DNA of 64,000 nt, taken from positions 129,341 through 193,340 of the IMG/VR virus record IMGVR_UViG_3300032516_000003; one strand, given 5' to 3'. The position numbers were made by a program, and so were the translations under genes. This document shows positions 38,375-53,377 of this stretch, piece after piece. How positions within the stretch are numbered: position 1 is the first letter of the stretch; every line of letters begins with the position of its first letter. The stretch comes from a virus. The notes beneath the pieces were generated by a model. That model was given only the letters and a program-made list of their open reading frames with translations, was not told where the DNA came from and did not search any database.

Positions 38375-39076
38375 CTACTTCCGGTTGGCGGCCAGCTCGC
38401 TCTCAGCCGTCTTGAGCAGCGCCTGTAGGCAGTCGACCAGCTTCTGCTCCGCGTCCTCGTTCTCGGCCAGCTGCTTGTGGTAGTTGGCCTCGTACTGGTC
38501 GCGCTTCTTCGTCAGCTCGGTGATCTCCTCCGGCAGGGTCCGCTCGTCGACTTGCTTGATCTTCTCGTTGTACTCCATGGCGATCTGGGTCTGGGCCTCC
38601 ATGATCTTCGCCTGCTTCTCCTTGCGGAGGGCGTCGATCTCCCGCTCCTTCTGGGTGTTGAAGGCCGTCCGCTTGGTGTTGAGCGGCGCGAGCACACGAC
38701 CCAGCTCCTTGGCGCACTCGACCTCCATCTCCCGCCGCACCCTCTTGGCAGTGGTGTGGACCACCTCCTCCATCCGGTGGATGATGGAGCCCATGGCGTA
38801 GATCGGCCCCTTGAGGAAGGCCTCGTCCGGCACCGTGTCGAGCGCCGGCATGAGCAGCTGCTGGTCCTGGTCTAATAGGGCTACCATTCGGGCACAGAAC
38901 TCGCGGTGTTTCTTGATCGTCTCCTGCTCCAGCTTCTTCAGGGCCTGCTCCATCTCACGCCGTTCCCGCTCCTTGTCCTCGGGAGTCTTGGCCTTCTCGA
39001 TGGCTTCCTTGGTGGCCGCCTCCGTGAGGATCTTGGCGGCAACTTCGGCGAGCTTGTTGCTCGATGCGCTCTCCAT
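38375..39076 (-). CDS. Coiled-coil protein (233 aa)
   Basis: K/E-rich helical repeats, no enzymatic motif. Confidence 0.45.
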   Translation of the reverse strand: MESASSNKLAEVAAKILTEAATKEAIEKAKTPEDKERERREMEQALKKLEQETIKKHREFCARMVALLDQDQQLLMPALDTVPDEAFLKGPIYAMGSIIHRMEEVVHTTAKRVRREMEVECAKELGRVLAPLNTKRTAFNTQKEREIDALRKEKQAKIMEAQTQIAMEYNEKIKQVDERTLPEEITELTKKRDQYEANYHKQLAENEDAEQKLVDCLQALLKTAESELAANRK

Positions 39077-39401
39077 CTACGCCTCCTTGTGTCGTCGCTT
39101 CGTGGGGGGCTATCATCTAGCAGTGGTACCGATTCTGACCCGGACCATCACCCATTGGACGGGATGGGTGGAGGTCATCCACGGCGACCACGCGTTGGTC
39201 AAGGTACACGACTACGTTCACGGAGACAATCGGGAAGCGAAGCTCGATCTCTCTTCCCTTAGCCCAGAGGACCGTGAGAAGATCTCCGTTGGCATCTACT
39301 TCGATTACCTGGTGACGGAAGAGAACGGCCAGATCAAAACCTGCCTCAGCATCGACTGTCGTCAATGGTACCCACGCATCATCAAACCTACGTAGGAGAA
39401 C

Positions 39402-39632
39402 ATGCGCGAGCATTGTCGTAACTGCGGCCGCCTGCTGCCGATCGGACAGCTGCGGAAGGTGGAAGGGAAGTACGAGTGTCTGAAGGATGCTCCCTGCAAG
39501 AAGGCGCAGGAGAAGCTAGGGCTTCCGCAGATGAACGCGGGGGCAGTGGCTGTCGCAGAAGCCACGCTTCATCATGCGGCACCTCTTGGCCTCTCGCCGT
39601 CTCGGAGTCCCTTCTCAATCCGATCGAGCTGA
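39402..39632 (+). CDS. Small zinc-ribbon protein (76 aa)
   Basis: TAGGAGA RBS. CxxC...C..C motif. Confidence 0.35.
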   Translation: MREHCRNCGRLLPIGQLRKVEGKYECLKDAPCKKAQEKLGLPQMNAGAVAVAEATLHHAAPLGLSPSRSPFSIRSS

Positions 39633-40070
39633 TGCTGGTTCACTGCGTAGTCCTGCTTGGGGACGATGTAGAGTTCGGGGCGGGGCGTCGGCTTGTCCCA
39701 CGGTCCCCACCATTTACGCAGGAGCTTCCTCAGCCACTTGAACATGCGCACACCTCCATTCTACCTCAGAGCGGCCGCCTTGCGATGAGTTGATGAAGCC
39801 GCTTCTCTTGCCGCTCGATCTTCTCGGTCACGTAGTACCACTAGCCACCACACACGATGCCGCCCACATCAGGCACCGTGTCGGCGTAGATGTGTCGCTC
39901 TTTGCCACACGTTGGGCAGCGGTAGATGTACACGAGACGCCACAGTAGTTGAAATTCGTGGCGCTTCTCAGAGCGCACAGGGTGCCGGAAATCAATGACG
40001 GTGCCACAGTTCATGGCTTATATCCTCGTTTGCCGCTGCCGGCGTTGGAACCCGTGAAACCGGACGGTCT

Positions 40071-40140
40071 CCATCCTGGGAGGCAAGAGTCGAGGCAAGA
40101 GTCGAGGCAAGAGTCGAGGCAAGAGTCGAGGCAAGAGTCA
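40071..40140. repeat. Tandem 12-bp repeat (caagagtcgagg) x ~5.5
   Basis: Directly visible: gaggcaagagtc repeated in an intergenic region. Confidence 0.85.
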
Positions 40141-40255
40141 GGTGCCCCTAGCAACGGTGGCGACCTCGTCGAGAGGGTGCTCCGGATCTCGGTCTCACGC
40201 TTCTGACAACTGGTGTGAATCTTGGGGCGGTAGAGGCGGCACAGTAGGCGCCAGA

Positions 40256-40555
40256 TCATGTGTCTTCCGTGCAGTGGACCCACTCCTCGTTCTCCTCGAC
40301 CACGGCCTCCGGGATGGGGAACTTGCCTTGGATCTGGCCACACGCCAGGCAGTAGGAGAACCTGACGTAGTCGCCCTTGCCGATGCCGAGTTCAGCCGGC
40401 ACGTAGCCGCTGAATTCAGAGTTGTGGCTGGTCGCGTCGAAGAGGTCGCTACACTTCGCGTTGACGTCGAGTACGCGATCGCTTCCGCACCGCTGGCACG
40501 CCATCGTCATCCTCCTTGGGATCGCCTGGCTCTGGTGCCCAGAGTTCAGTGACAT
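40256..40555 (-). CDS. Zinc-ribbon protein (99 aa)
   Basis: CQRCG...CLACG motifs. Confidence 0.4.
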   Translation of the reverse strand: MSLNSGHQSQAIPRRMTMACQRCGSDRVLDVNAKCSDLFDATSHNSEFSGYVPAELGIGKGDYVRFSYCLACGQIQGKFPIPEAVVEENEEWVHCTEDT

Positions 40556-40769
40556 CCTTGTAGTCGTGAGCGGCTCCTAGTAGTTCCAGGAGGCCGTACA
40601 TCTCCGCTTTCTTCTGATCAGGGGTCAGCTCCTCAGTCACCTCGCAGCCCTGGCAGTGCCACGACTTCCACCGCTCGGTGACCGCTCGACTGAGGCATTC
40701 CCCATAGCGGGCACACTCCAGACGTCGGAAAGGAACGACGTACCTGGAGTGTTCGAACGGTCCACGCAT
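40449..40769 (-). CDS. Hypothetical Cys-containing protein (106 aa)
   Basis: Partly overlaps 40256..40555 in another frame. One of the two starts may be later. Confidence 0.35.
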   Translation of the reverse strand: MRGPFEHSRYVVPFRRLECARYGECLSRAVTERWKSWHCQGCEVTEELTPDQKKAEMYGLLELLGAAHDYKDVTELWAPEPGDPKEDDDGVPAVRKRSRTRRQREV

Positions 40770-40925
40770 GGCGGGACTCCTAGTGGCATTGTACTAGAGG
40801 AGTTGAGCGAGGTGCTGCAGGACTTCGGGGGTCGGAATTGCGTCGCGTTCTGAAGAAAGAGTCACCCGGCCTGACTCCGGTACCAGGCCGCACGAACGGT
40901 GTCCACGTGGCAGGTGACGCTGATT

Positions 40926-41336
40926 CTACGCAGTCTTCTTCGTCTTCTTCACGCCGTAGCGGCTTCGGCTCTTGTTGCGAGGGAGCTCGTTTCCGGCGCT
41001 GCTACTGCGGATGGTGTCCCCGATGCAGTCGAGGGCTCCCCGGATGACGTGATACTTGACCCCCGGCAGATCCTTCACGCGGCCACCACGGATCATCACC
41101 TGACTGTGCTCCTGGATGTTGTGGCCGATTCCAGGGATGTAGGCGATCACGTTCAAGCCGTTGCTGAGTCGCACCGTGCAAGCCTTGCGTAGAGCCGAGT
41201 TGGGTTTCTTCGGCTTCACCGTGTAGGCGCGAAGAACCACTCCCCGCCGCTGCGGGCAACCCTGCAGCGCCGGAGCCTTGCTCTTCTTCCTTTGCCGCTT
41301 TCGTCCGTACTTGATCAACTGATTGAGCGTCGGCAT
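40926..41336 (-). CDS. rpsL: Ribosomal protein uS12 (S12) homolog with C-terminal insertion
   Basis: '[89 protein letters not shown]' is near-identical to the bacterial uS12 consensus. No rpsG/fusA follows. Confidence 0.85.
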
Positions 41337-41608
41337 TCACATCTCCTCTCATGTTCTCTGGTCTCAGCGTACATGAACTCCCGTTCCTGTTGGGCACTTT
41401 CATGCCGCAAGATTCGTAGTCCATTCAGCAGCCGCTTGTTCCGTACGCCAGAATGTTCCAGTAGGTCAAGAGCCTCCTGCAAGAGGGCAGTCACCCGGGA
41501 GACTGCGTCTAGGCGGTCTCTCGATTCGAGCTGTCTCATGTGGTACCTCAGGTGATATCTGGTGGGAGAAGGGCCCCTGTGATCACCGAGCGGGAGAGTC
41601 TCCGCCAC
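41315..41608 (-). CDS. Hypothetical protein (97 aa)
   Basis: Upstream of the uS12 gene, weak support. Confidence 0.3.
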
Positions 41609-41852
41609 AGGGGCTCGTTCTGCTCTATGACCCTCTTCAAATAGGGCGGCCGACCGGGATTGTCAGCCCTCGGTTGTCCTGGGTGGCGTTACCGAATAGT
41701 GAATCGAAGATATCCGTCACTGTCGGTGGTCAGCTTGCGTGGCTCGGAACGATAGGGGGAGATCACTTGGCCGTCCTCGGAGACCCTGTACCCCAGATCA
41801 AAAGCCTTGATGATCCACCCGTCTCCTCTGGAGCGCATCGTACCTCCTGTAG

Positions 41853-42191
41853 TGGACTGGTCGGGAATCGAACCCGAGTCCTGCGGAGCTTTGAGGCGAG
41901 TACTACGTGCGTAGCTCCCTTACGAGAGCGCGACGGCGTGTTGGTCCGGTACGGCCGTCATCCCCGGTACTGCAGGGCGCCTTGCGGCACCTCCACCATC
42001 CCTCTTTCTGTTGCCGGGAGCTCTGAGGGCTTCCCCGCTACTCCCACCCCAGCTTACGCTACGGCGCGGAGCGGCTGGCGGACGATGTTGTCGTTCGCTT
42101 TTCAGTTTGATCGGATTGTTGAAGGGGCCATCCGATCAACCCCTGCACGCACTCGCCTCTCTGTCTCCCCAGTCGAAACCATTTCCAGCCC
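41853..42191 (-). ncRNA. ssrA: tmRNA (SsrA); tag peptide ANDNIVRQPLRAVA*
   Basis: 5' 'GGGCUGGAAAUGGUUUCGACUGGGG' and 3' 'GGGUUCGAUUCCCGACCAGUCCA' match E. coli tmRNA ends. Acceptor pairs GGGCUGG/CCAGUCC. Tag ORF GCG AAC GAC AAC ... GUA GCG UAA at 42054..42098. Confidence 0.75.
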
Positions 42192-42878
42192 TTGCGCCCG
42201 CTACCGGCTGTGCCAGCTTTCCCCGAAGGGAGGGTCAACGGGCGGACCCTGTTGTAGGTTGGGCTGGCCACCGGAACTGCCCCGGTGCTCACGACTACAT
42301 CCTCCAGGGAGCATCTCGCCCAAATCAAGGAGGCGCGGTCTTGGCCCATCATCGTGAGGTTCTTGTTGGCTCCTGCTCGATCTCTTTTGTTCCAGGTTAC
42401 GCAGGTTCCCCTGGCGCCTCAGCCGCAACGTGTCTATCCACGTCGACCAGCCCAGAAAGTAGTAGCTGGGGATGTTTGGACTCCTGCACCGCCAGGAATC
42501 TACACCTTTGCCCCAGGTGAAGTCGGTGTCAATCTGGGGTTGGGCCGCCCAGCTAGCGGCCAGCTCATCAAAGTGAATTTGCCTGCGGTGGCGCATGGGC
42601 GATCAACTCCACCGGTTCTCTCATCCATCCGCAGGCGTAGCTAAGGCCACTTTCCTCACCGCCCGGCCGAGCGGAAGAGAACATAGTACTCATGGCCCAG
42701 TGATCTACTTATACCCGCGATCTAGGACGTCCGTCAAGTGGAATCAGACCGTGGGCGTGCCGTCGTAGGGCGTGCTGCTGGCCGGTGGCGTGGTCGGGTC
42801 GGGGACTGCTGGTGCCGGGTCGAGTGGCAGGATAGCCGGCTTGTACTCGAAGTACTGGCCGTTGTCATGAACCCCTCC

Positions 42879-43769: not shown

Positions 43770-43780
43770 GGCTTACGCCA

Positions 43781-44290: not shown

Positions 44291-44358
44291 GGTCAACTCC
44301 ACCAGGTCATGGGTGTCTCCAGCTAGAATAGCTGATGTGGTCACGTGTTGGTGCGTGA

Positions 44359-44438
44359 GTGCCCAGGGCCGGACTCGAACCGGCATGCTTTCGCACAGAG
44401 GTTTGAGCTCTGCGGGTCTACCAATTTCCCCACCTGGG
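44359..44438 (-). tRNA. tRNA-Leu(CAA), type II
   Basis: Acceptor GCCCAGG/CCUGGGC, T-arm CCGGUUCGAGUCCGG, anticodon loop CUCAAAC. Confidence 0.7.
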
Positions 44439-44441
44439 CAG

Positions 44442-44520
44442 ATGGTCCGAGTGGCCGGATTTGAACCGGCGGCCCCCTGTACCCCGACCGTGCCGTCTAC
44501 CACTGACGTACACCCAGTTA
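44442..44520 (-). other. tRNA-like element (T-arm + acceptor present, no clean anticodon arm)
   Basis: T-arm GCCGG-UUCAAAU-CCGGC and CCA-like end, but the anticodon stem cannot be folded. Confidence 0.3.
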
Positions 44521-45057
44521 TCCTTGATCGTTGTGTGCTTCTGCGTGGTGGTTAGCGCAGAGCAAGATGCAGCCCCGAATCTCTTTTTTGACCCGCTCCC
44601 AGCCCCAGTACTTGAAGCCACGAAAGGCCACGTCCTTTTTTCTGGGATCTCGGTGGTGTATGTGTAGCGCAGCAAGACACTTCTTGTAGCCGCAGACCTT
44701 GCAGCTGCCTCCTAGGACGTCCACTACTCTTTGCTTGATCTCTTCGGCCCTTCGATACCTGTCTTTGTTGTGGCAGGCTACGCAGAGCTTTCGTTTGTTC
44801 CCATAGAACTGTTGTGGGTTACGCTCACCACACGGGCACTTGCGGGGCAAGGACAGGTCCTTGGGGTGTTTACCTGCAGGACCACGCCGAGTTCTGAGAT
44901 CATGCTTCTTCAACCAGTAGCGCACGGCAGTAGGACCGATCCGCAGACACGCTGACATCTGCTTAATGGTGTAATCCTGCTTGATCAACTTTTCCAGCTC
45001 TACTGAAGACACAACCTTCCCTATTTTCCTGGCCATGGGTGCAGCGTACAGTAGCAC
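44518..45057 (-). CDS. HNH homing endonuclease with N-terminal HTH
   Basis: 'CKVCGYKKCLAALHIHHRDP...CILLCANHHAEAH'. Confidence 0.7.
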   Translation of the reverse strand: MLLYAAPMARKIGKVVSSVELEKLIKQDYTIKQMSACLRIGPTAVRYWLKKHDLRTRRGPAGKHPKDLSLPRKCPCGERNPQQFYGNKRKLCVACHNKDRYRRAEEIKQRVVDVLGGSCKVCGYKKCLAALHIHHRDPRKKDVAFRGFKYWGWERVKKEIRGCILLCANHHAEAHNDQG

Positions 45058-45182
45058 AGTTTAGCTGTCAAGCGTGCGCTACCAGGCTGCGCCACACTCG
45101 GTTGGGAGCGGGGGGAGGATGTGCGCCTCCTGATCGTCACCGGCTTATGAGGCCGGCCGCCTCTGTTGGCATTCCCCGCTAG

Positions 45183-45255
45183 TGGCTGATCTCAGAGTCG
45201 AACTGAGTCATGCGCCTTATGAGAGCGCCAAGGTGACCACCACCTTACATCAGCC
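45183..45255 (-). tRNA. tRNA-Met(CAU)
   Basis: Acceptor GGCUGAU/AUCAGCC, anticodon loop CUCAUAA, T-loop UUCGACU. Confidence 0.75.
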
Positions 45256-45364
45256 GTGCTACGATTCGGTCATGCAACTGCACAGCACGATCAACTTCAA
45301 GCCTACCTGGGGTGAGCTCTTCGGCCTTGCCCTGTTCGTCTTGTGGACCTTCATCGAAGGCCGG

Positions 45365-45390
45365 TGCGCGCGGAGGGATTCGAACCCTCA
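45365..45390 (-). other. tRNA 3'-fragment (T-arm + 3' acceptor strand only)
   Basis: GAGGG-UUCGAAU-CCCUC-CGCGCGC with no 5' partner. Overlaps the next tRNA. Confidence 0.4.
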
Positions 45391-45402
45391 CTGACCAGCT
45401 AG

Positions 45403-45487
45403 TGCCGACGGGGCGACTCGAACGCCCAATGACCTTTCGATCACCTCGCTTTAAGGGAGGCCCGTTAGCCAGTTCCGGCACGTCGGC
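45403..45487 (-). tRNA. tRNA-Leu(UAA), type II
   Basis: Acceptor GCCGACG/CGUCGGC, loop CUUAAAG, long variable arm. Confidence 0.65.
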
Positions 45488-45902
45488 CTACATTCTTTCC
45501 TCTGTACGTAGGTGTGAATGCGTGACAGTTGGGACAGAGTAGCCTCAGGTTCTTTACTGCCTGGTTGTGCTTGTCCCCATCGCAATGATGAATCTCCAGT
45601 GGTATCGCCTCTCCTGACCACTTTGTTCTGCGGCACCCTTCACACTGGTGTCCGCGTTCTTCTATGAGCCTGCGCTTGATCGCTGCCTTGTGCTTTAGTT
45701 GTGACAGTTCTTTCCGGCACAGCTTCTGTCCATGACGCTTCGCCACTTCTGGATCAACTGGGATGTGGCCGATCCACCCCTTTATGGTCCTCCAGTGGAC
45801 TCCAGTGTGGTGGGCTATTGATCGGAAACCGTGTCCCAACTTCCGTAGCTGAATGGCTTCCTTGTACTGCTCCTGCTTCCCCTTATAGGGTCCTCTAAGC
45901 AT
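45465..45902 (-). CDS. HNH homing endonuclease
   Basis: 'CEGCRRTKWSGEAIPLEIHHCDGDKHN...LRLLCPNCHA'. Confidence 0.7.
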   Translation of the reverse strand: MLRGPYKGKQEQYKEAIQLRKLGHGFRSIAHHTGVHWRTIKGWIGHIPVDPEVAKRHGQKLCRKELSQLKHKAAIKRRLIEERGHQCEGCRRTKWSGEAIPLEIHHCDGDKHNQAVKNLRLLCPNCHAFTPTYRGKNVGRRAGTG

Positions 45903-45962
45903 TCAACCAGGCTAGCAATTCACAGCAGTAGCGTCAAGCCACACTAGCTATTACGATTTGGT

Positions 45963-46045
45963 GCCAGCGAGAGGAATCGAACCTCCATGAGCTTTCGCCC
46001 GCTCGGTCCTAAGCCGAGTGCGTCTGCCGTTTCGCCACGCTGGCG
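45963..46045 (-). tRNA. tRNA-Leu(UAG), type II
   Basis: Acceptor GCCAGCG/CGCUGGC, loop CUUAGGA. Confidence 0.75.
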
Positions 46046-46050
46046 TTGGC

Positions 46051-46124
46051 CTGCCCGGAGGGATTCGAACCCCCACTTGCTCGGTTCGTAGCCGAGAGTC
46101 TTCTCCAATTGGACCACGGGCAGA
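46051..46124 (-). tRNA. tRNA-Arg(ACG)
   Basis: Acceptor CUGCCCG/CGGGCAG, loop CUACGAA. Confidence 0.75.
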
Positions 46125-46128
46125 TGGT

Positions 46129-46202
46129 GTCGCTGGCCAGATTCGAACTGGCAGCCGCTCGGGTCGGAGCCGAGTGCTCGATCCAATCGAGCTGCAGCGA
46201 CG
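46129..46202 (-). tRNA. tRNA-Arg(CCG)
   Basis: Acceptor GUCGCUG/CAGCGAC, loop CUCCGAC. Confidence 0.75.
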
Positions 46203-46209
46203 GTGTGGT

Positions 46210-46282
46210 GTCCTAGCCCAGACTCGAACTGGGAACGGAGGTTTAGGAGACCTCCATGATCTCCGCTTTCACCACTAGGACT
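46210..46282 (-). tRNA. tRNA-Arg(CCU)
   Basis: Acceptor GUCCUAG/CUAGGAC, loop CUCCUAA. Confidence 0.75.
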
Positions 46283-46631
46283 TGTAGCGTGCGTCAAATG
46301 CCCGTTTAGCGGCTTTGCAGCCGGCACACCGGCATCCGTAGTTCGAGTAGCGTGATTTGGTGCCGTGTGATGGCTCGCGCTGGGCGCCCGATTCTTTCTT
46401 GTGACACTCCGAGCAGAGGACTTCGCACTTTGCTAGTTCCTGACGCCGCCGCGCTTCACTCCAGGACCAGATCCTATGTGTGACCTTTGTTGAGCGGTCC
46501 ACGTGGTGGACTTCCAGCTGTTCAACTGAGCCGCAGCGAGCGCATTTCTGCCCTACAAACCAGTTCTCGCGTCTTGCTTTGATCCATTCTCGATTGTATG
46601 CACGCTGCAGTTCTTGGTCCTTGTATGGCAA
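46275..46631 (-). CDS. HNH homing endonuclease (start uncertain, probably TTG after internal GGAGG)
   Basis: 'CARCGSVEQLEVHHVDRS...CEVLCSECHKKE'. The N-terminal part of the track ORF overlaps a tRNA-like element. Confidence 0.6.
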   Translation of the reverse strand: MPYKDQELQRAYNREWIKARRENWFVGQKCARCGSVEQLEVHHVDRSTKVTHRIWSWSEARRRQELAKCEVLCSECHKKESGAQREPSHGTKSRYSNYGCRCAGCKAAKRAFDARYKS

Positions 46632-46696
46632 GGTACCTCCATCCAATTGGGCGACAGGGCCGAGGGGTGACGATATTCGGTGAGGCGATGTGCTAG

Positions 46697-46765
46697 GTGC
46701 CCTGCCGAGGAGTTGAACCCCGCACTCTGCGCTTAGAAGGCGCTGATGGCGTCCGCACCGCAGGG
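46697..46765 (-). tRNA. tRNA-Arg(UCU)-like, short/irregular D-arm (possible pseudo-tRNA)
   Basis: Acceptor GCCCUGC/GCAGGGC, loop CUUCUAA, only 69 nt. Confidence 0.4.
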
Positions 46766-47074
46766 CTCTTGCAGCTTGCGCTTCTCGTTCGGAGGGTCCT
46801 TGTCTTTGGCACCGTTGGCCTTGTAGGGCTTGCACAGTAGGCAGCCAGCTCTCCGATTCTTGGGACGCTTGCGCTTGTGGTGCACGATCACCTCTCAGTC
46901 ACAGCAGCGTTGCGATTGATGTGCCTGTTCCACCTGATCGCTGCGGCAGCGTAGGCGGACTGCTTGTACTGGCTGTACATCCGCATCGGCCATCTGACTG
47001 GTAGACGGCCCAGAGGACCGTGCAGCCGCGTCAGCACCTTCTTCGCCTGCCTCAGCTTCATGGTGTCCTCCTGG

Positions 47075-47145
47075 AGCTACCGACAGGATTCGAACCTGTG
47101 TGGCTCGGGTTGCAGCCGAGTGCCTCGCCTCTTGGCTACGGTAGC
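47075..47145 (-). tRNA. tRNA-Cys(GCA)
   Basis: Acceptor GCUACCG/CGGUAGC, loop CUGCAAC, discriminator U. Confidence 0.8.
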
Positions 47146-47149
47146 ATGG

Positions 47150-47320
47150 CGGGGGACCTGGGGATCGAACCCAGCCCGGCTCCGAGAGGGCATCATCTTG
47201 CACCGCCCTGAGCCTGGACGGTTGCGGGTCTTGCGACCCAGCGGGCCTGGCAGGAATCGAACTCAGCAGCCAACCGGGTTTGGAGTCCAGTGCGCTTACC
47301 CAGAGCGTCTCCCCTTCTTC
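47150..47320 (-). other. ~170-nt tRNA-like element(s) with aberrant arms
   Basis: 5' GGGGAGAC..., D-arm, anticodon-like loop CUCCAAA (CCA = Trp), two UUCGAU T-loops, 3' GUCCCCCGCCA. Cannot be folded into a canonical cloverleaf. Confidence 0.3.
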
Positions 47321-47736
47321 CATTTTCCTAGTCTTGCGTGCAACCGGCGATGGCAGTTGGCGCAGAGAACTCTGCACTTCTTGATCTCCTTAATCACCGT
47401 CCCCCAACTGAGACCTCGCTGGTACATGAGTTGGTTGATGCCTGCTTCCTTTTGACTTGGGTCTCGGTGGTGAAACTCCAGCACCACTGGATCAGCTTCG
47501 CCACAACTACATGAGTGCTTGAAAAGGTACTGTGTCAGCTGCTGTGCGATCTCCTCCCTGCGCTTCTGGTTGCTGACCTTAGCCCGAGCAAGGTACTTGG
47601 TCCTGTCCTTCTTGTAGTGCTCTCGGTTGTAGGCAGCTTTGCAGGTGATGCAGAGACTTTGGTAGCCGCGTCTAGAGTGGCGGTAGAACTGCTTCACTGG
47701 AAGTGGACCACAGTTCTTGCAGGTGGCTGTCCTCAT
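47296..47736 (-). CDS. HNH homing endonuclease (start adjusted to MRTATCKNCG)
   Basis: 'CSCGEADPVVLEFHHRDPSQK...CRVLCANCHRRLHA'. Confidence 0.65.
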   Translation of the reverse strand: MRTATCKNCGPLPVKQFYRHSRRGYQSLCITCKAAYNREHYKKDRTKYLARAKVSNQKRREEIAQQLTQYLFKHSCSCGEADPVVLEFHHRDPSQKEAGINQLMYQRGLSWGTVIKEIKKCRVLCANCHRRLHARLGKWKKGRRSG

Positions 47737-47762
47737 GTCTCTGAAGACTAGCACACATTTGG

Positions 47763-47834
47763 AGCCGGAGAGTGGACTTGAACCACCACCCTCGTCCTTA
47801 CCAAGGACGCGCACCACCTTTGTGCTACTCCGGC
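47763..47834 (-). tRNA. tRNA-Thr(GGU)
   Basis: Acceptor GCCGGAG/CUCCGGC, loop UUGGUAA. Confidence 0.75.
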
Positions 47835-47842
47835 ATGATCAG

Positions 47843-47915
47843 TGGATGCGAAGGGATTCGAACCCTCTGCCTCAGGCTTGCAAAGCCCGCGCTCTCCCAA
47901 GTGAGCTACGCACCC
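47843..47915 (-). tRNA. tRNA-Ala(UGC)
   Basis: Acceptor GGGUGCG with G3:U70, loop UUUGCAA. Confidence 0.8.
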
Positions 47916-47919
47916 ATGG

Positions 47920-47991
47920 TCCGAGGTGAGGGAGTTGAACCCCCGGCATCCGGTTTGTAGGACCGGCGTTCCTCCGTTGAACTAACCTCGG
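47920..47991 (-). tRNA. tRNA-Val(UAC)
   Basis: Acceptor CCGAGGU/ACCUCGG, loop CCUACAA. Confidence 0.7.
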
Positions 47992-47992
47992 G

Positions 47993-48064
47993 TGCTCCCG
48001 GCGGGTATCGATCCCGCTCCTGCGGCTTGAAAGGCCACTGACCTAGCCAGTAGTCTACGGGAGC
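47993..48064 (-). tRNA. tRNA-Glu(UUC)
   Basis: Acceptor GCUCCCG/CGGGAGC, loop CUUUCAA, T-loop AUCGAUA. Confidence 0.65.
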
Positions 48065-48468
48065 GAGTGGTGGACCCTGTGGCAGTTCGCACAGAGCACC
48101 TCACACTTGCCCACTTCCTCCCAGATGCGATCTATGTTGAAGCATCTAGTGATCATAGTGGCGATGTTGTCCGTCTTGGTGCCGCCGACGTGATGTAGAT
48201 CTAGCGCAGCTGCGTGCTCATTGTAGCCACATGACTGGCAACCAATGCTCATCTTGTAGCTATCGATGACGTCCTTTGCCTCGGCGCGGACTCTCTTAGT
48301 TCTTGCCCGCACTTGTTTGTCTCGTCCTCGATTGTAGTAGCTGTCAGAGTCAATCTCTCGGTGGCACGGCTTACACCAGCTCTGACGTCTGCCCTTGGAC
48401 TTGTAGCGCCAGGCGAAGTCCTCTACATCTCTTTCATGACCGCATTTGGGGCATACCTTGGTCTTCAT
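48055..48468 (-). CDS. HNH homing endonuclease
   Basis: 'CQSCGYNEHAAALDLHHVGG...CEVLCANCHRVHH'. Confidence 0.7.
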   Translation of the reverse strand: MKTKVCPKCGHERDVEDFAWRYKSKGRRQSWCKPCHREIDSDSYYNRGRDKQVRARTKRVRAEAKDVIDSYKMSIGCQSCGYNEHAAALDLHHVGGTKTDNIATMITRCFNIDRIWEEVGKCEVLCANCHRVHHSLP

Positions 48469-48513
48469 GCAGTCATGATAGTGTGTATCGAACTGCTCCG
48501 CAAGAGTGAAAGG

Positions 48514-48585
48514 TGACCCCAGGGGGAGTTGAACCCCTCGTTTACGGGTTGAGAACCCGTTTGCCTACCGTTAGCAGATGGGGCC
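48514..48585 (-). tRNA. tRNA-Glu(CUC)
   Basis: Acceptor GGCCCCA/UGGGGUC, loop UUCUCAA. Confidence 0.65.
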
Positions 48586-48591
48586 ATTGAT

Positions 48592-48789
48592 CTACTTCTT
48601 GATGGTGGAGAAGCAGCGGGGGCAGCAGATGACGGTATCGACTTCCCTCTTGTCGTTCGCCTTGTAGAGGATGTTGTTGTTGCGCGGGACACTCCACTGG
48701 AAGTCCCGGCCGCAGAGGCAGACGGCACTGCCCTCCCCCTCGTTCTCTTGGATCACTACTCTGATGTTGGTGCCCATTGTCTCCCTCAT
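48592..48789 (-). CDS. Small zinc-ribbon protein (65 aa)
   Basis: CLCG...CCPRC. Confidence 0.35.
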   Translation of the reverse strand: MRETMGTNIRVVIQENEGEGSAVCLCGRDFQWSVPRNNNILYKANDKREVDTVICCPRCFSTIKK

Positions 48790-48793
48790 GTTG

Positions 48794-48866
48794 AGCCGCC
48801 CCCGAGACTCGAACTCGGTACCTTCCGCTTACAAGGCGGATGCTCTGCCAGGTGAGCTATGGCGGC
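48794..48866 (-). tRNA. tRNA-Thr(UGU)
   Basis: Acceptor GCCGCCA/GGGCGGC, loop CUUGUAA. Confidence 0.7.
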
Positions 48867-48901
48867 AACTACTATCACCTTGATCGATCTGCGTCAAGTG
48901 G

Positions 48902-48974
48902 AGCTGGAGGTGGGAGTCGAACCCACTGCCTCCGGTTTACGAAACCGGCGCTCTGCCTGTTGAGCTTCACCAGC
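48902..48974 (-). tRNA. tRNA-Thr(CGU)
   Basis: Acceptor GCUGGUG/CUCCAGC (one mismatch), loop UUCGUAA. Confidence 0.65.
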
Positions 48975-49050
48975 GTTGGTAGGGACGGCGGCCCGTTAGT
49001 CCGCTCCTCGTTCCTAAGGGATTGCGTGCACGATTACACCACGTCCCCAG

Positions 49051-49123
49051 CTGGGTGGGATGGAGTCGAACCACCATCTCCTCTGATGGACTAGAGGCGC
49101 TTTTCCGATTGCGCTACCACCCA
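49051..49123 (-). tRNA. tRNA, anticodon undetermined (irregular 8-nt anticodon loop AGUCCAUC)
   Basis: Good acceptor UGGGUGG/CCACCCA and T-arm. Anticodon stem CCUCU/AGAGG leaves an 8-nt loop. Confidence 0.45.
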
Positions 49124-49127
49124 ATGG

Positions 49128-49212
49128 TGCCATCACCCGGATTCGAACCGGGACGCCCTTTCGAGCACAGCGTTCTGAGCGCTGCGGGTCTACCTGATTT
49201 CCCCATGATGGC
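49128..49212 (-). tRNA. tRNA-Leu(CAG), type II
   Basis: Acceptor GCCAUCA/UGAUGGC, loop CUCAGAA. Confidence 0.75.
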
Positions 49213-49217
49213 GTTGG

Positions 49218-49305
49218 TGCGATCGGCCGGAGTCGAACCGGCACCCAGCTTTCGCCGGACCAGGCCCTCAACCTGGCGGGTCTACCAAGATTTCCCCACG
49301 ATCGC
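49218..49305 (-). tRNA. tRNA-Leu(GAG), type II
   Basis: Acceptor GCGAUCG/CGAUCGC, loop UUGAGGG. Confidence 0.75.
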
Positions 49306-49309
49306 TTGG

Positions 49310-49381
49310 TCGGGGTGACTGGAATTGAACCAGCGACCTCACGGTCCCGAACCGTGCGCGCTACCCCTGCGCTACACCCCG
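49310..49381 (-). tRNA. tRNA-Pro(CGG)
   Basis: Acceptor CGGGGUG/CACCCCG (C1-G72), loop UUCGGGA. Confidence 0.75.
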
Positions 49382-49761
49382 ATTGCTGTCAGGCTCCGGT
49401 ACGTGCCCCCATCGTTGTGGCTCATGCGTAGGTAACCCTGCAGCCAGTTGATCAGGTCACTTGCTTCCCACGCCACCAGTAGCCAGAGGGGAGACCAAAG
49501 CGCTCCCAGAAGGGCCCAAGCTAGCAGTAGAACAATGGACTTGATCAGTGGGGCTAGAGCCGATGTTCTTCTCTGCACGGCTGTGAGGGATTGACTGTAG
49601 CTTACGCTACCCCACACGAAGCCACTTGAAGCGACGTGAGGCCAAGGGCGGAAGGCCTTGATCCCCACACCGTAGGCTCGTGCAACTAAGACGTGCGTCA
49701 GCTCGTGAAGCACGAGAGTCAGAGGAGCACCAACTACGCCTAGGACTATCCAGTACCACAT
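49372..49761 (-). CDS. Small polytopic membrane protein with HExxH ('HELTH') motif; metalloprotease-like
   Basis: Three or four TM helices. HExxH within the first helix (site-2-protease/M50-like arrangement). Confidence 0.4.
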   Translation of the reverse strand: MWYWIVLGVVGAPLTLVLHELTHVLVARAYGVGIKAFRPWPHVASSGFVWGSVSYSQSLTAVQRRTSALAPLIKSIVLLLAWALLGALWSPLWLLVAWEASDLINWLQGYLRMSHNDGGTYRSLTAIGV

Positions 49762-49776
49762 AGGACGAGTCTACCA

Positions 49777-49850
49777 GAGCGGGTGACGGGATTTGAACCC
49801 GCAATCTCCAGCTTGGAAGGCTGGCACCGGTACCAGTCCGGCAGCACCCG
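49777..49850 (-). tRNA. tRNA-Gly(UCC)
   Basis: Acceptor GCGGGUG/CACCCGC, loop CUUCCAA, discriminator U. Confidence 0.75.
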
Positions 49851-49893
49851 CGTGACAGAAAGACAGAATGGGAAGAAGGGGTCGGGTTGTCGT

Positions 49894-50304
49894 TTACTGC
49901 ACGATCTTCTTGATCTCTTCCGCCAATGACTCAGTACGGACTGTCAAGTTCCGTATCAGCCGTGGCAGAATCTGTGCTGCTTCGATTCGCTGTCGTAGAG
50001 GAGCCGAGCTCACGGGGAGGACGCAGTTTTCCTCACCGTCCACATCCTCGATCACCACCAGCTGGTAGCCTCCCTTCTCCTTCCGGTAGGCCAGGCTGTA
50101 GGCGATCTCGACTGGTGGGCCTTCCGATTCTGGGTCGTTGGCCTCTTCTGTAGCCCCCTTCATCGTGATGCGGGCCGTGGCACACGAGAACTCACCTAGA
50201 GCCTCCTCGGTATGCCGGAAGTGGGCGTTCAGCTTCTCCACCAGACACTTCAGCTCCTCTTCCTTCTCTACCAGACGCTGCAGCTCAAGTCGTTGCTCGT
50301 TCAT
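49894..50304 (-). CDS. Coiled-coil hypothetical protein (136 aa; start adjusted to MNEQRL)
   Basis: The track ORF's N-terminal extension runs toward tRNA sequence. Confidence 0.4.
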   Translation of the reverse strand: MNEQRLELQRLVEKEEELKCLVEKLNAHFRHTEEALGEFSCATARITMKGATEEANDPESEGPPVEIAYSLAYRKEKGGYQLVVIEDVDGEENCVLPVSSAPLRQRIEAAQILPRLIRNLTVRTESLAEEIKKIVQ

Positions 50305-50346
50305 GGTCAGTACCCCTGTCAATGAGTACGGACCCCTTCTTCCCGG

Positions 50347-50429
50347 CGGAAGATCCGAGAGTCGAACTCGGCTAGCCTTGCGGCCGTACTCGCCTTCCAA
50401 GCGAGCTGTGCACCTCGCACGCATCTTCC
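50347..50429 (-). tRNA. tRNA-Ser(GGA), type II
   Basis: Acceptor GGAAGAU/AUCUUCC, loop UUGGAAG, discriminator G. Confidence 0.7.
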
Positions 50430-50433
50430 ATGG

Positions 50434-50505
50434 AGCGGCCAGTGAGAGTTGAACTCACGATCTCCACCTTGGCAAGGTGGCGCCTTACCACTAGGCAATG
50501 GCCGC
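50434..50505 (-). tRNA. tRNA-Gly(GCC)
   Basis: Acceptor GCGGCCA/UGGCCGC, loop UUGCCAA. Confidence 0.75.
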
Positions 50506-50557
50506 AAGAAATGGGGGTTGCTCAGCAGCTGATCTTCACGGTTCTTGTACGCCATCG

Positions 50558-50646
50558 CGGAGCGGAGAGGAATCGAACCTCCAGACCCTCATGAGGCCTC
50601 CGGTTTAGCAAACCGGTACAGGGCACCAATGCCTGACGGCCGCTCC
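50558..50646 (-). tRNA. tRNA-Ser(GCU), type II
   Basis: Acceptor GGAGCGG/CCGCUCC, loop UUGCUAA, discriminator G. Confidence 0.75.
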
Positions 50647-50694
50647 ATTGTTTCCCGGCTTTGTTTGGGAGAGCCGGGAAGAACTCCGCTAGCC

Positions 50695-50765
50695 TTGAGA
50701 CGGTGGGTCTTGAAGCCACACTCTCCAGCACCCTAGCTGGTGCTCTACCATTGAGCTACGTCCCT
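50695..50765 (-). tRNA. tRNA-like with 6-nt (or 8-nt) anticodon loop UAGGGU; possible pseudo/suppressor tRNA
   Basis: Canonical D-arm GCUCAAUGGUAGAGC. Acceptor GGGACG/CGUCUC (G3:U70). Anticodon stem CCAGC/GCUGG encloses only 6 nt. Confidence 0.35.
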
Positions 50766-51030
50766 CGGTACTGCGCCAGTTGATCCTTAGTCGTCTTAAC
50801 TCGATGTCTGATTGACGTGGTTGTTTGGCTGCCTGTTGATCTGGATCTCACTACTCCCAGAACGCCTGGGCTACTTCGCGATCACCAGCCACCTGCAGCA
50901 TCACAGTCGTCGCTCGTGATCAGCCTCTATGGGGCCAGGTCACGATCTCACCTCCATGGGCATTGAGCCGGAGTAGGTTGGACATTCTACCACGAACCAG
51001 CCCCCACTAATCGAGGCAGGGGTCTGGGCA

Positions 51031-51101
51031 GCGCCCTATGAGGGACTCGAACCCTCTTCACTCGCTAGACAGGCGAGCTGCGCTCCCAGCGCATCATAGG
51101 G
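51031..51101 (-). tRNA. tRNA-Asp(GUC)
   Basis: Acceptor GCCCUAU/AUAGGGC, loop CUGUCUA, discriminator G. Confidence 0.75.
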
Positions 51102-51310
51102 CAGACCCGGAGACCTTGCGCCCCGCCCTAGGCAGGGACCAGTACTGCAGATCAGGTGAGGGGCCCTATCCACTGATCTTCTGGCGTCTAGTGGCCTTCC
51201 GGTTGGCCGTGAAATAGAACGGTCGCTCCAGTGGCGCCGTCAACGAACTGGAGACTGGGTGGCTAACATCGTAGGACGGTGACGTACTAGTTAGCGACCT
51301 GACCGTTCAG

Positions 51311-51393
51311 CGGAGAGTAGCGGAATCGAACTGCCTGGCTTTCACCAGCCCACGCCTTCGAAGCGTGTTAGGGACCATTCCCTGGTACTCTCC
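51311..51393 (-). tRNA. tRNA-Ser(CGA), type II
   Basis: Acceptor GGAGAGU/ACUCUCC, loop UUCGAAG, discriminator G. Confidence 0.65.
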
Positions 51394-51454
51394 ATTACGG
51401 GAAGCGTGCCGCCGCTGCACCACGTTCGCCCACGCAGAGTGTTGCCCTGCGGCT

Positions 51455-51480
51455 AGCGCCCGGCGGGATTCGAACCCGCG
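51455..51480 (-). other. tRNA 3'-fragment (T-arm + 3' acceptor strand)
   Basis: GCGGG-UUCGAAU-CCCGC-CGGGCGC without a 5' partner. Overlaps tRNA-Ala(GGC). Confidence 0.4.
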
Positions 51481-51492
51481 TCTCTTCCCTAG

Positions 51493-51565
51493 TGGATCCG
51501 ATCGGAGTCGAACCGACAGCCTCCTGAATGCCATTCAGGCGCTCTCCCAGCTGAGCTACGGACCC
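51493..51565 (-). tRNA. tRNA-Ala(GGC)
   Basis: Acceptor GGGUCCG (G3:U70), loop AUGGCAU. Confidence 0.75.
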
Positions 51566-51569
51566 GTCG

Positions 51570-51640
51570 TGGATCGACGGAGAGTCGAACTCCGATTTGC
51601 GGCTTGCGGAACCGCCGTCCTCCCATTGGACGATCGACCC
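51570..51640 (-). tRNA. tRNA-Ala(CGC)
   Basis: Acceptor GGGUCGA (G3:U70), loop UCCGCAA. Confidence 0.65.
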
Positions 51641-51689
51641 GTGTTATGCTCTCCCAAATGTCGGCATCTTGCCGATGAGGAGAAGGACA

Positions 51690-51953
51690 ATGATCAAGTA
51701 CCTACTATGTCTGGTTGCGATGCTCTTCGTGGCGTGCAGCAAGCCAGTGGCCCCGGCTGCTCCGACTTCTGCTCCGGCCAAAGTGGAGACCCCTGCTGCG
51801 CCAGCTCCTGCCTCCGTGCCGGTACTGAAGGTCATGCCGCCAGCCAAAGCTCCTGCTGCGGCCAAGGTGACAGTCAAGGCCGGACCGATCATCACAGTGA
51901 TTCCTGCCAAGGCCACCACCAAGCTTCCGCCCAATAACCTCAAGATCAAGTAA
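51690..51953 (+). CDS. Pro/Ala-rich lipoprotein (signal peptide + lipobox FVAC); o-spanin-like or superinfection-exclusion candidate
   Basis: 'MIKYLLCLVAMLFVAC|SKPVAP...'. GAGGAGAAGGA RBS. Plus-strand gene inside the minus-strand tRNA array. Confidence 0.5.
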   Translation: MIKYLLCLVAMLFVACSKPVAPAAPTSAPAKVETPAAPAPASVPVLKVMPPAKAPAAAKVTVKAGPIITVIPAKATTKLPPNNLKIK

Positions 51954-51962
51954 TGCTGCGTA

Positions 51963-52033
51963 GGTGATCGGTGGAAGTCGAATCCACACCTACAGGGCCA
52001 CAACCTGCCGTGCTACCGCTACACCACGACCAC
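51963..52033 (-). tRNA. tRNA-His(GUG)
   Basis: Acceptor GUGGUCG/CGAUCAC, loop UUGUGGC, discriminator C. Confidence 0.75.
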
Positions 52034-52035
52034 AG

Positions 52036-52110
52036 TGCGACCCGCTGGATTCGAACCAGCCACCCTTCGCTTATCAAGCGAATGCTCTAACCAAGATGAG
52101 CTAGGGTCGC
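52036..52110 (-). tRNA. tRNA-Ile(GAU)
   Basis: Acceptor GCGACCC/GGGUCGC, loop UUGAUAA. Confidence 0.8.
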
Positions 52111-52115
52111 GTTAG

Positions 52116-52188
52116 AGTGGGAGGCGAGATTTGAACTCACATCGGGCTGCTTAACAGGCAGCTGCCTGAACCATTAGGCTACTCCCAC
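52116..52188 (-). tRNA. tRNA-Asn(GUU)
   Basis: Acceptor GUGGGAG/CUCCCAC, loop CUGUUAA. Confidence 0.75.
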
Positions 52189-52192
52189 ATGG

Positions 52193-52264
52193 TCGAGGTG
52201 GCCGGGATCGAACCGGCGACCCCCTGGTCCCAGGCCAGGTGCGCTACCCCTGCGCTACACCTCG
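52193..52264 (-). tRNA. tRNA-Pro(UGG)
   Basis: Acceptor CGAGGUG/CACCUCG, loop CCUGGGA. Confidence 0.75.
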
Positions 52265-52265
52265 G

Positions 52266-52337
52266 TTCGGCCGGCACGATTCGAACGTGCGACTACTCGG
52301 GTCAAAGCCGAGTGTCCTACCACTGGACGACGGCCGA
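52266..52337 (-). tRNA. tRNA-Gln(UUG)
   Basis: Acceptor UCGGCCG/CGGCCGA (U1-A72), loop CUUUGAC. Confidence 0.75.
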
Positions 52338-52399
52338 TCACAATTGTGAAGTACACCGCTTCTGTGAGTCGCGACATCAGGAAACGATGTACTTCGTGG

Positions 52400-52470
52400 T
52401 GCTCCAGTGCGGAGTTGAACCGCAACCTTCTGGGCTTCAACCAGACGCTCTACCTCTGAGCTACCGGAGC
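52400..52470 (-). tRNA. tRNA-Phe(GAA)
   Basis: Acceptor GCUCCGG/CUGGAGC, loop UUGAAGC. Confidence 0.75.
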
Positions 52471-52475
52471 CTCAG

Positions 52476-52548
52476 TCCACCCCGGGGGAGTCGAACCCAC
52501 CGTCAACCGCTTATAGGGCAGCCGTTAGAACCGCTTAACTAGGGGTGG
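52476..52548 (-). tRNA. tRNA-Ile(UAU)-like (AUA decoder) — anticodon assignment tentative
   Basis: Acceptor CCACCCC/GGGGUGG, loop CCUAUAA. Confidence 0.5.
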
Positions 52549-52617
52549 TTGTGCCCGGCAAGACGCCGGGCTTCGTGACCACGTATCGCTATTCGTTTGT
52601 CACAGAGCGTTGCGCAG

Positions 52618-52691
52618 TTCGGGGTGAGAGACTTGAACTCCCAATCTTCCGGGTCAGAGCCGGACGCTCTAGCCAGTTGAGCCAACCCCGA
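52618..52691 (-). tRNA. tRNA-Gln(CUG)
   Basis: Acceptor UCGGGGU/ACCCCGA, loop CUCUGAC. Confidence 0.75.
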
Positions 52692-52707
52692 TCATCTAGT
52701 ACGCGCC

Positions 52708-52780
52708 GTGGGTCCACAGAGATTCGAACTCTGTTCTCCCGGGTAAGAGCCGGGTGCTTCTCCTGCTAAGCTTTGGACCC
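52708..52780 (-). tRNA. tRNA-Lys(CUU)
   Basis: Acceptor GGGUCCA/UGGACCC, loop CUCUUAC. Confidence 0.7.
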
Positions 52781-53089
52781 TCTACGTCTCTGACGCCAGT
52801 GTAGTTTCGCGTGACAGTTGAGGCACATCACTTCGCACTTCTTGATCTCTTCTTCTAGCCGCGCAAGAGACCATCCCATCCTAGACGCACTCCCCAACTC
52901 AAACGACTTGTTGTTGGGATCTGTGTGGTGAAAGACAAGGGCGGCCTTGTGCCTCTCGCCACATGTGCAGAACGTCTTTCTCTCCTCTATGAACTCCTTG
53001 ATCTGCCTTCGTTGCTCTAGCAGCCGCTGCGCTGCCTTGTCCCGGTTCTTCTGGTAGTACCTAGCGTTCACTTCTCTGCTGTTGCTCAT
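52766..53089 (-). CDS. HNH homing endonuclease (107 aa)
   Basis: 'CTCGERHKAALVFHHTDPNNK...CEVMCLNCHAKLHW'. Confidence 0.7.
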   Translation of the reverse strand: MSNSREVNARYYQKNRDKAAQRLLEQRRQIKEFIEERKTFCTCGERHKAALVFHHTDPNNKSFELGSASRMGWSLARLEEEIKKCEVMCLNCHAKLHWRQRRRGSKA

Positions 53090-53174
53090 ACACCGTCAGT
53101 AGCATCTCTTACTCACCTCTGTCAAGTAAGAGTCAGGTGCTCTGCCGGTCGAGCTAGGCGCGTATGATCTTCAG

Positions 53175-53247
53175 TGCCTCCGGCAGGAGTCGAACCTGCA
53201 ACTTTCGGGGTAAAAGCCCGCTACGCTGCCAGTTGCGTCACGGAGGC
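53175..53247 (-). tRNA. tRNA-Lys(UUU)
   Basis: Acceptor GCCUCCG/CGGAGGC, loop CUUUUAC. Confidence 0.7.
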
Positions 53248-53292
53248 TCATGTACAAGTCATAAGCCCCGCGTTTGAGTCGTGCCTTCATGG

Positions 53293-53377
53293 TGCACGTG
53301 GCTGGAGTCGAACCAACCTGGGCGCTATGTCCAACCGGGTTACGGCCGGTCCCCGAGCCCTACGGGCCTACACGTGC
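53293..53377 (-). tRNA. tRNA-Tyr(GUA), type II
   Basis: Acceptor GCACGUG/CACGUGC, anticodon stem ACCGG/CCGGU, loop CCGUAAC. Confidence 0.6.

Follow-up and report, generated by a model that had tools for sequence, protein, structure and literature searches.

Results

A uS12 gene in a phage genome

A 64,000-nucleotide stretch of the IMG/VR virus record IMGVR_UViG_3300032516_000003 (positions 129,341 to 193,340; hereafter the window) carries a gene for the ribosomal protein uS12 (RpsL). It is preceded on the same strand by a small open reading frame (ORF) that overlaps its start, by a transfer-messenger RNA (tmRNA) gene and by an array of 38 tRNA genes (Table 1). A plus-strand block from position 112 to about 36,000 codes for a baseplate-like protein, the large terminase, a 1,339-aa protein, the major head protein and the tail sheath. 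Beyond the tRNA and tmRNA genes lie a 5'-nucleotidase, a dCMP deaminase and a major-vault-protein-like gene. uS12 is flanked by the terminase, head, sheath and baseplate genes on one side and by the tRNA array and the nucleotide-metabolism genes on the other. The window has a G+C content of 60.9%. At third codon positions (GC3), the value is 0.80 for uS12 versus 0.82 for the phage structural genes.

The gene is phage-borne. An identical protein is encoded on the metagenomic contig of 193,704 bp and again on a 2.8-kb contig of an independent Logan assembly. A related phage fragment of 7.1 kb (locus L012) is collinear with positions 39128-42865 of the window at 74-93% nucleotide identity. A tblastn search detected neither S7 nor EF-G anywhere in the 64 kb. 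A first reading of the sequence alone (the sequence-only reading) had proposed a phage gene outside a str operon, with no S7 or EF-G following, which a host str-operon fragment would contradict. The structural genes, the base composition, the independent assemblies and the synteny in relatives bear out both parts. A megablast search with positions 38000-46000 against 50,697 phage records gave no match; there is no close cultured or deposited relative.

Identity of the protein

The ORF encodes an intact bacterial-type uS12. It matched Pfam family PF00164 (4.5e-35) and scored 189.6 bits with the NCBIfam equivalog model TIGR00981 (rpsL_bact), for which the cut-off is 112.95. The alignment to TIGR00981 was end to end, with residues 1-133 on profile positions 1-123 of 124. 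Scores with the archaeal and eukaryotic uS12 models were far under their cut-offs. Among PDB sequences, uS12 chains of many ribosome structures were matched by HMMER with E-values of about 1e-47. The AlphaFold2 (AF2) model had a mean predicted local distance difference test score (pLDDT) of 77.7 and the expected five-stranded oligonucleotide/oligosaccharide-binding (OB) core, with strands at residues 29-40, 50-57, 62-67, 79-84 and 95-100. The top Foldseek matches of this model were all ribosomal uS12 chains (probability 1.00). The architecture is full length and comprises the N-terminal extension, the OB barrel and the basic C-terminal tail.

Alignment to bacterial RpsL gave the numbering of the Escherichia coli protein (Met counted) as far as G106, followed by a single gap of 10 residues. 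The motif KKPNSALRK occupies residues 43-51 and the second decoding-centre segment residues 82-93. All 36 invariant columns of an alignment of 56 homologues are retained, including P42-K43-K44-P45-N46-S47, R86, D89, P91 and G92; K88 is also retained. The sequence-only reading of a near-consensus bacterial uS12 with PNSALRK and a second decoding-centre segment thus agrees with TIGR00981, PF00164, the PDB matches and the AF2 model. Cellular uS12 proteins from many phyla share 57-66% identical amino acids with the window protein. A streptomycin-resistance allele was considered for the window copy and rejected: K43, R86, K88 and P91 are all wild type.

Expanded loop before the C-terminal tail

HMMER alignments to solved uS12 chains contain one gap of exactly 10 residues. 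The inserted residues are located in the loop that joins the OB barrel to the basic C-terminal tail, and they extend this loop from the canonical 11 residues to 21. The sequence-only reading had noted an insertion of about 12 residues at the C-terminus. Its position near the C-terminus stands, and its size has to be corrected: 12 is the total length difference (136 versus 124 aa), made up of the 10-residue insertion and two extra residues at the C-terminal end. In the AF2 model the insertion is a low-confidence coil (pLDDT about 58-63). From the strand order and topology of the OB fold, the loop and the N-terminal extension would emerge from the same end of the barrel, the pole that faces away from the decoding loops. 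The flanks of the insertion are conserved in the subclade of the window, starting with G-D-T-x-R, and the middle varies in length and sequence.

Every phage uS12 copy found carries an expanded loop at the same position. An insertion as a viral invention was nevertheless rejected, given insertions in the same loop in cellular str-operon uS12 genes. Proteins P0039 (locus L016) and P0083 (locus L017) are cellular uS12 encoded in S12-S7-EF-G(-EF-Tu-S10...) operons, with insertions of 9 and 16 residues. The +16 type recurs in metagenome-assembled genomes (MAGs) labelled Hydrogenedentota and Nitrospirales, and +8-9 types recur in Acidobacteriota and Armatimonadota clusters. Since cellular str-operon genes carry 8-16-aa insertions there, the loop is a natural hot-spot for length variation. 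Like the phage copies, the cellular variants have the insertion between the G106 region and the R-S-K/R-Y-G motif, and the +16 type opens with G-D, resembling G-D-T of the window. They differ by their ordinary S12-S7-EF-G operons, the preserved Thr41 and inserted sequences unrelated to the phage ones.

A phage-restricted group of uS12 proteins

A search of 5.8 billion proteins returned the protein itself, followed by metagenomic proteins grading from 97% to about 60% identity. The phage uS12 group comprises at least 15 loci with genomic context, including the window, with 53-97% identity. Fourteen are phage-like loci without a str operon. In nine of these (L001, L004, L007, L009, L011, L012, L018, L019 and L115), uS12 lies amid small hypothetical genes, HNH nucleases, tRNAs and phage-type genes, and S7 or EF-G adjoins uS12 in none of the nine. 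The other five are L101, L102, L105, L107 and L109. L001 is a 441,904-bp IMG/VR phage whose uS12 is 71% identical to that of the window. Its uS12 is directly followed by a predicted tRNA-Arg(CCG) of 97 nt, which is longer than usual and may be intron-containing or miscalled.

The search of viral databases proposed with the sequence-only reading was performed as a profile-guided scan of 2.9 million IMG/VR contigs. It detected 15 uS12 loci, eight host-type and seven phage-type. The phage-type loci (L100, L101, L102, L105, L107, L109 and L112) lack S7 and EF-G, and all seven have a loop insertion of 6-16 residues. The host-type loci had the canonical 11-residue loop in all five cases with a visible loop, and four of these five had S7/EF-G next door. 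Such host-type loci were set aside (L002/L003, identical to L103/L104, and L106, L108, L110, L111, L113 and L114). S7/EF-G are alongside uS12 in L103/L104, L106, L108 and L111; the others end at contig or locus ends. With the search used, phage uS12 is very rare: seven phage-type copies in 2.9 million IMG/VR contigs. A tblastn search with uS12 against the 50,697 phage records yielded only matches of 52-65% identity. Annotated rpsL matches in GenBank phage records (Salmonella and Acinetobacter 'phage' MAG contigs; Listeria, Staphylococcus and Enterococcus fragments) were judged host-type, as the records resemble bacterial contigs.

Full-length identity reached 66% at best in those GTDB species representatives that the search patterns matched, and the matches were scattered over many phyla. 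A recent cellular donor does not appear in these comparisons. In a neighbour-joining tree calculated after removal of the insertion columns, all 41 phage-type sequences formed one clade with a bootstrap value of 21%. The 'G-D-T' subclade of the window had 39%. The cellular +16 sequences grouped as a separate clade at 98% bootstrap; their placement as sister of the phage group was unsupported (12%). Taken together, the sequences suggest a common descent of the phage uS12 group.

Phage uS12 is under purifying selection. Pairwise ratios of nonsynonymous to synonymous substitutions (dN/dS, Nei-Gojobori) among phage copies were 0.064-0.376 in 28 pairs, and the closest, unsaturated pairs had 0.064, 0.10 and 0.11. 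A difference to cellular proteins is located at position 41. Threonine is present in 86 of 88 cellular sequences, while the phage group (n=36) has lysine in 26, glycine in five, asparagine in two and threonine in one. The window protein has a lysine, two positions before Lys43. Some IMG/VR members (L101, L105) have kept the threonine. Lys88 is replaced by proline (RVPDLPGV) in L004 (identical to L112), in L107 and in protein P0018. Position 88 is the classical site of streptomycin resistance and of restrictive, hyperaccurate alleles.

tmRNA upstream of uS12

The tmRNA of the window was overlooked by ARAGORN and detected with the full-length Rfam model. A tmRNA gene is located upstream of uS12 on the same strand in eight of the 15 loci, less than 0.6 kb away in five of them (Table 1). 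The uS12 copies with a linked tmRNA span both phage subclades, and some are only about 60% identical to that of the window. Neither this linkage nor the overlapping small ORF had been picked up in the sequence-only reading. The encoded tags are ordinary-looking: ANDNIVRQPLRAVA in the window, ANDNVVRAPLRAAA in L012 and ANDNIQLAMAA in L109. On the coding strand between tmRNA and uS12, scans for terminator-like or promoter-like sites found none, although these scans are weak. Downstream of uS12, no convincing intrinsic terminator was present (fold z-score 0.73).

Related loci hold further genes. The tRNA/tmRNA islands of L007 and L115 each encode a short RF-1-domain protein (ArfB/peptidyl-tRNA-hydrolase-like; 114 and 84 aa), which is a second ribosome-rescue-type gene near uS12. 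L012 encodes a 475-aa protein with WGR, PARP_reg and PARP domains, a poly/mono-ADP-ribosyltransferase, about 1.5 kb upstream of the tmRNA-uS12 unit. This gene type is absent from the window.

A small overlapping ORF

The small ORF between tmRNA and uS12 ends in E-C-R-R-S-I-S, which is the out-of-frame reading of M-P-T-L-N-Q-L at the start of uS12. It is present upstream of uS12 at every locus of the subclade of the window, with lengths of 72-118 aa, and matches to its hidden Markov model (HMM) in related loci occur only directly upstream of uS12. The family is small, with 12 clusters in a set of 5.8e9 proteins and 14 representatives in one of 1.84e9. Several distant members end in a C-R-x-S motif, which betrays an overlapping uS12 start. 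The small ORF is under purifying selection (dN/dS 0.06-0.34 in informative pairs). Its AF2 model has a pLDDT of 89.5 and two helices, residues 2-30 and 35-73. Pfam gave no significant match. A Foldseek search of the model retrieved generic helical hairpins only (Rop, designed bundles) with E > 1 and was uninformative. The start of uS12 has a strong Shine-Dalgarno sequence. Translational coupling of the small ORF with uS12 is probable.

Other features of the window

Three inteins are located in the structural gene block. The large terminase is interrupted by one of LAGLIDADG type, and its 1,339-aa neighbour contains two Hint/LAGLIDADG inteins. The 860-aa protein with major-vault-protein domains (MVP_shoulder, 1.2e-26; Vault_3; Vault repeat) is unusual for a phage. 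The tRNA array is separated from the tmRNA by genes for a TnpB (OrfB_IS605/Cas12f-like) and an HNH endonuclease. Since L012 carries a 244-aa ORF and the PARP gene here instead, this looks like a mobile-element insertion. Within the tRNA array, ARAGORN called a tRNA-like gene with an undetermined two-base anticodon ('cc'), which could have an odd anticodon loop or be a miscall; the Rfam tRNA model scored it with 39.8 bits. A perfect 12-nt tandem repeat is located among small ORFs about 0.8 kb downstream of uS12.

Table 1. Positions of the uS12-associated genes and of further features in the window and in related loci
Locus	Feature	Position	Strand	Basis or remark
Window	uS12 (RpsL) coding sequence, 136 aa, ATG start, TAG stop	40926..41336	(-)	ORF list and profiles
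Window	Loop insertion, 10 residues (109-118), between G106-D-T and P119-R-N-K-S-R-S-R-Y-G	40983..41012	(-)	HMMER gap and translation
Window	Shine-Dalgarno AGGAG, 6 nt 5' of the uS12 ATG, within the 3' end of the preceding ORF	41343..41347	(-)	Read from the sequence
Window	Small ORF, 74 aa, predicted two-helix hairpin, overlaps the uS12 start by 22 nt	41315..41539	(-)	Alignments, HMM, AF2
Window	tmRNA gene upstream of small ORF and uS12, inferred tag ANDNIVRQPLRAVA; 513 nt to uS12	41850..42191	(-)	Rfam RF00023, 96.8 bits, full-length model
Window	Array of 38 tRNA genes upstream of tmRNA and uS12	44359..53377	(-)	ARAGORN, Rfam
Window	tRNA-like gene, anticodon 'cc'	49050-49123	(-)	ARAGORN, Rfam
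Window	TnpB and HNH endonuclease genes	42879-43769 and 43781-44503	(-)	
Window	Tandem repeat GAGGCAAGAGTC, 5 copies	40080-40139		
Window	Large terminase with intein	6013-8955	(+)	
Window	1,339-aa protein with two inteins	11897-15916	(+)	
Window	Major-vault-protein-domain protein, 860 aa	57611-60193	(-)	
L012	tmRNA, 461 nt to uS12	2951-3322		
L018	tmRNA, 206 nt to uS12	6349-6794		
L107	tmRNA, 206 nt to uS12	5487-5794		
L109	tmRNA, 200 nt to uS12	1156-1509		
L019	tmRNA, 2.7 kb to uS12	1909-2403		
L007	tmRNA, 5.5 kb to uS12	4105-4512		
L115	tmRNA, 6.0 kb to uS12	3840-4243		
L004	uS12 with Pro at position 88	9995-10408		
L107	uS12 with Pro at position 88	6001-6393		
L001	tRNA-Arg(CCG) call, 97 nt	10466-10562		Directly after uS12
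L007	RF-1-domain protein, 114 aa	1978-2322		
L115	RF-1-domain protein, 84 aa	2159-2413		
L012	WGR-PARP_reg-PARP protein, 475 aa	1-1428		

Discussion

Proposed role in host ribosomes

Together with 16S rRNA, uS12 sets decoding accuracy and the response to streptomycin. We favour, with moderate confidence, a functional phage uS12 that is expressed from the distal end of a translation island and most likely assembles into the host 30S subunit at the decoding centre. The order within this island is tRNA array, tmRNA, small helical ORF and uS12. The protein retains its decoding-loop residues, its N-terminal extension and its rRNA-binding tail and is under purifying selection, which argues for a function in the 30S subunit. 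In view of this conservation and selection, the remodelling of host ribosomes put forward in the sequence-only reading is plausible. Such conservation of the decoding loops would be expected only for a protein seated in the ribosome. Phage uS12 would replace host uS12 at the decoding centre, and infected cells would contain ribosomes with A-site properties set by the phage. These may concern tRNA selection and possibly the entry of tmRNA or translation factors. As uS12 joins the subunit late and is deeply anchored in it, incorporation probably depends on 30S subunits that are newly made in the infected cell. For large phages with near-complete tRNA sets, new subunit assembly during infection is plausible. 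The phage may gain a maintained supply of uS12, an accuracy or speed retuned for its own tRNAs, a modified entry of tmRNA-SmpB or an escape from something that targets host uS12. Incorporation and a change of fidelity or rescue are predictions from the sequences, as are any roles of the small ORF, the loop insertion and the replaced Thr41.

Several observations weigh against this role or against its link to tmRNA. As a late-assembling and deeply anchored protein, uS12 does not belong to the readily exchangeable ribosomal proteins. The readily exchangeable ones have been argued to be those that viruses usually encode (Mizuno et al. 2019, PMC6375957). The bootstrap value for monophyly of the phage group is 21%, and a cellular sister group is likewise not established by the neighbour-joining tree. 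No tmRNA is present in the available flanks of seven of the 15 loci (L001, L004, L009, L011, L101, L102 and L105). The co-location of tmRNA and uS12 could also be a mere shared, highly transcribed translation island. A search with E. coli SmpB found no homologue in the window, a weak test that covers 64 of the 193.7 kb of the contig. In the literature, uS12 is linked to trans-translation only indirectly: a binding site near uS12 has been proposed for RNase R on rescued ribosomes (PMC12320835), and an S12-SmpB contact is absent from a pre-accommodation crystal structure (PMC3929946).

A bolder proposal regards phage tmRNA and phage uS12 as a co-evolved unit that would provide phage-specialised ribosomes with their own rescue pathway, with the hairpin protein as an escort or regulator of uS12 in one subclade. 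A-site entry would be altered via the remodelled loop and the changed Thr41, favouring or gating the phage tmRNA or the 38 phage tRNAs. We consider this proposal rather unlikely as a whole. If true, it would represent the first case in which a virus encodes a replacement for a decoding-centre protein, with a defined RNA partner.

Alternative explanations

Phage uS12 may act off the ribosome as an RNA chaperone that helps to fold or process the structured tRNA and tmRNA transcripts or other RNAs. E. coli S12 has such an activity in T4 group I intron splicing in vitro, and a role in nascent 16S rRNA folding is documented (PMC10931766). The position of uS12 at the end of an array of 38 tRNAs and a tmRNA on the same strand and the recurrence of the tmRNA linkage in other phages would suit a chaperone. 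A generic role would not demand the PNSA loop, K43, K88, D89, P91 or the full N-terminal extension, all of which are retained. Rfam detected tRNAs and the tmRNA in the window and no introns, and the insertions in structural genes are inteins. An extraribosomal function is a genuine alternative in view of the neighbouring array of structured RNAs, and we consider it unlikely. In another explanation, phage uS12 works in the ribosome as a replacement that is insensitive to an agent acting at or close to host uS12, such as an abortive infection (Abi) toxin of the host, a shut-off factor made by the phage or an aminoglycoside from the environment, with the Thr41 replacement and the loop as determinants. 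The distribution of Thr41 (86 of 88 cellular versus one of 36 phage-group sequences), the proline at K88 in L004, L107 and P0018, and the ADP-ribosyltransferase encoded near the tmRNA-uS12 unit of the close relative L012 agree with an escape from attack. The window copy is wild type at K43, R86, K88 and P91 and has no PARP gene, and a uS12-targeting toxin was not identified in this analysis. Sensitivity to streptomycin is dominant in merodiploids, which also counts against resistance as the gain. We regard this explanation as quite unlikely.

A captured piece of a host str operon, a chimeric assembly or a neutral passenger would have no phage role at all. Contamination of this kind is real in the databases: eight of the 15 IMG/VR matches were host-type, four with S7/EF-G next door, and several GenBank 'phage' records matching uS12 resemble bacterial contigs. 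The window differs from these cases. S7 and EF-G are absent from 64 kb, phage genes and the tRNA island flank uS12 on both sides, and in composition uS12 does not differ from the phage structural genes. Independent assemblies and phages at 53-95% protein identity carry this gene with these neighbours, strong purifying selection acts on uS12, and the nearest cellular uS12 found is at most 66% identical. A host origin of the DNA or a neutral passenger is highly improbable.

Comparison with known systems

With bacterial RpsL, the window protein shares the full architecture, all invariant alignment columns, the PNSA loop and K43, K88, D89 and P91. In bacteria the gene is usually the first of the str operon (rpsL-rpsG-fusA), an order that is typical and not defining; the window copy is outside any such operon. 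It also differs by the 10-aa insertion after residue 108, the lysine in place of Thr41, and the tmRNA and overlapping small ORF upstream.

Ribosomal proteins encoded by viruses have been reported, including bS21, bL12, bL9, bL31, bL33, bS6, uS9, uS15 and the hibernation factor HPF (Mizuno et al. 2019, PMC6375957). Translation genes of huge phages include those for S4, S1, S21 and L7/L12 (Al-Shayeb et al. 2020, PMC7162821). The main text of these two studies does not mention uS12. A survey of glacier-foreland soil lists S12 among huge-phage genes by KEGG annotation (Microbiome 2025, PMC11748809); it is a list item in a text that gives no sequence analysis, insertion, phylogeny or gene context, and is probably the same kind of gene. 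In full-text literature searches, neither phage uS12 nor a linkage of tmRNA with uS12 turned up as the subject of a study. As far as found, the tmRNA linkage, the overlapping partner ORF, the phage-restricted group, the expanded loop and the loss of Thr41 have not been described before.

The phage uS12 resembles the reported viral ribosomal proteins as a single gene fixed in phages under purifying selection (PMC6375957), and it resides, as described for huge phages, in a large phage rich in tRNAs and further translation genes, with a presumed adjustment of host ribosomes (PMC6375957, PMC7162821). The group is phage-restricted, is conserved in phages from about 70 kb to 441 kb, and is marked by a particular sequence signature and a tmRNA neighbour that recurs. 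These features point to phages that reach into the ribosome core, perhaps in connection with ribosome rescue. Three small, cloneable genes offer a system for virus-made specialised ribosomes, for the tuning of fidelity by uS12 and for the purpose of phage tmRNAs. The reported viral ribosomal proteins are mostly peripheral and exchangeable, whereas uS12 is a buried protein of the decoding centre; phages with uS12 probably alter the core of the host ribosome rather than its periphery.

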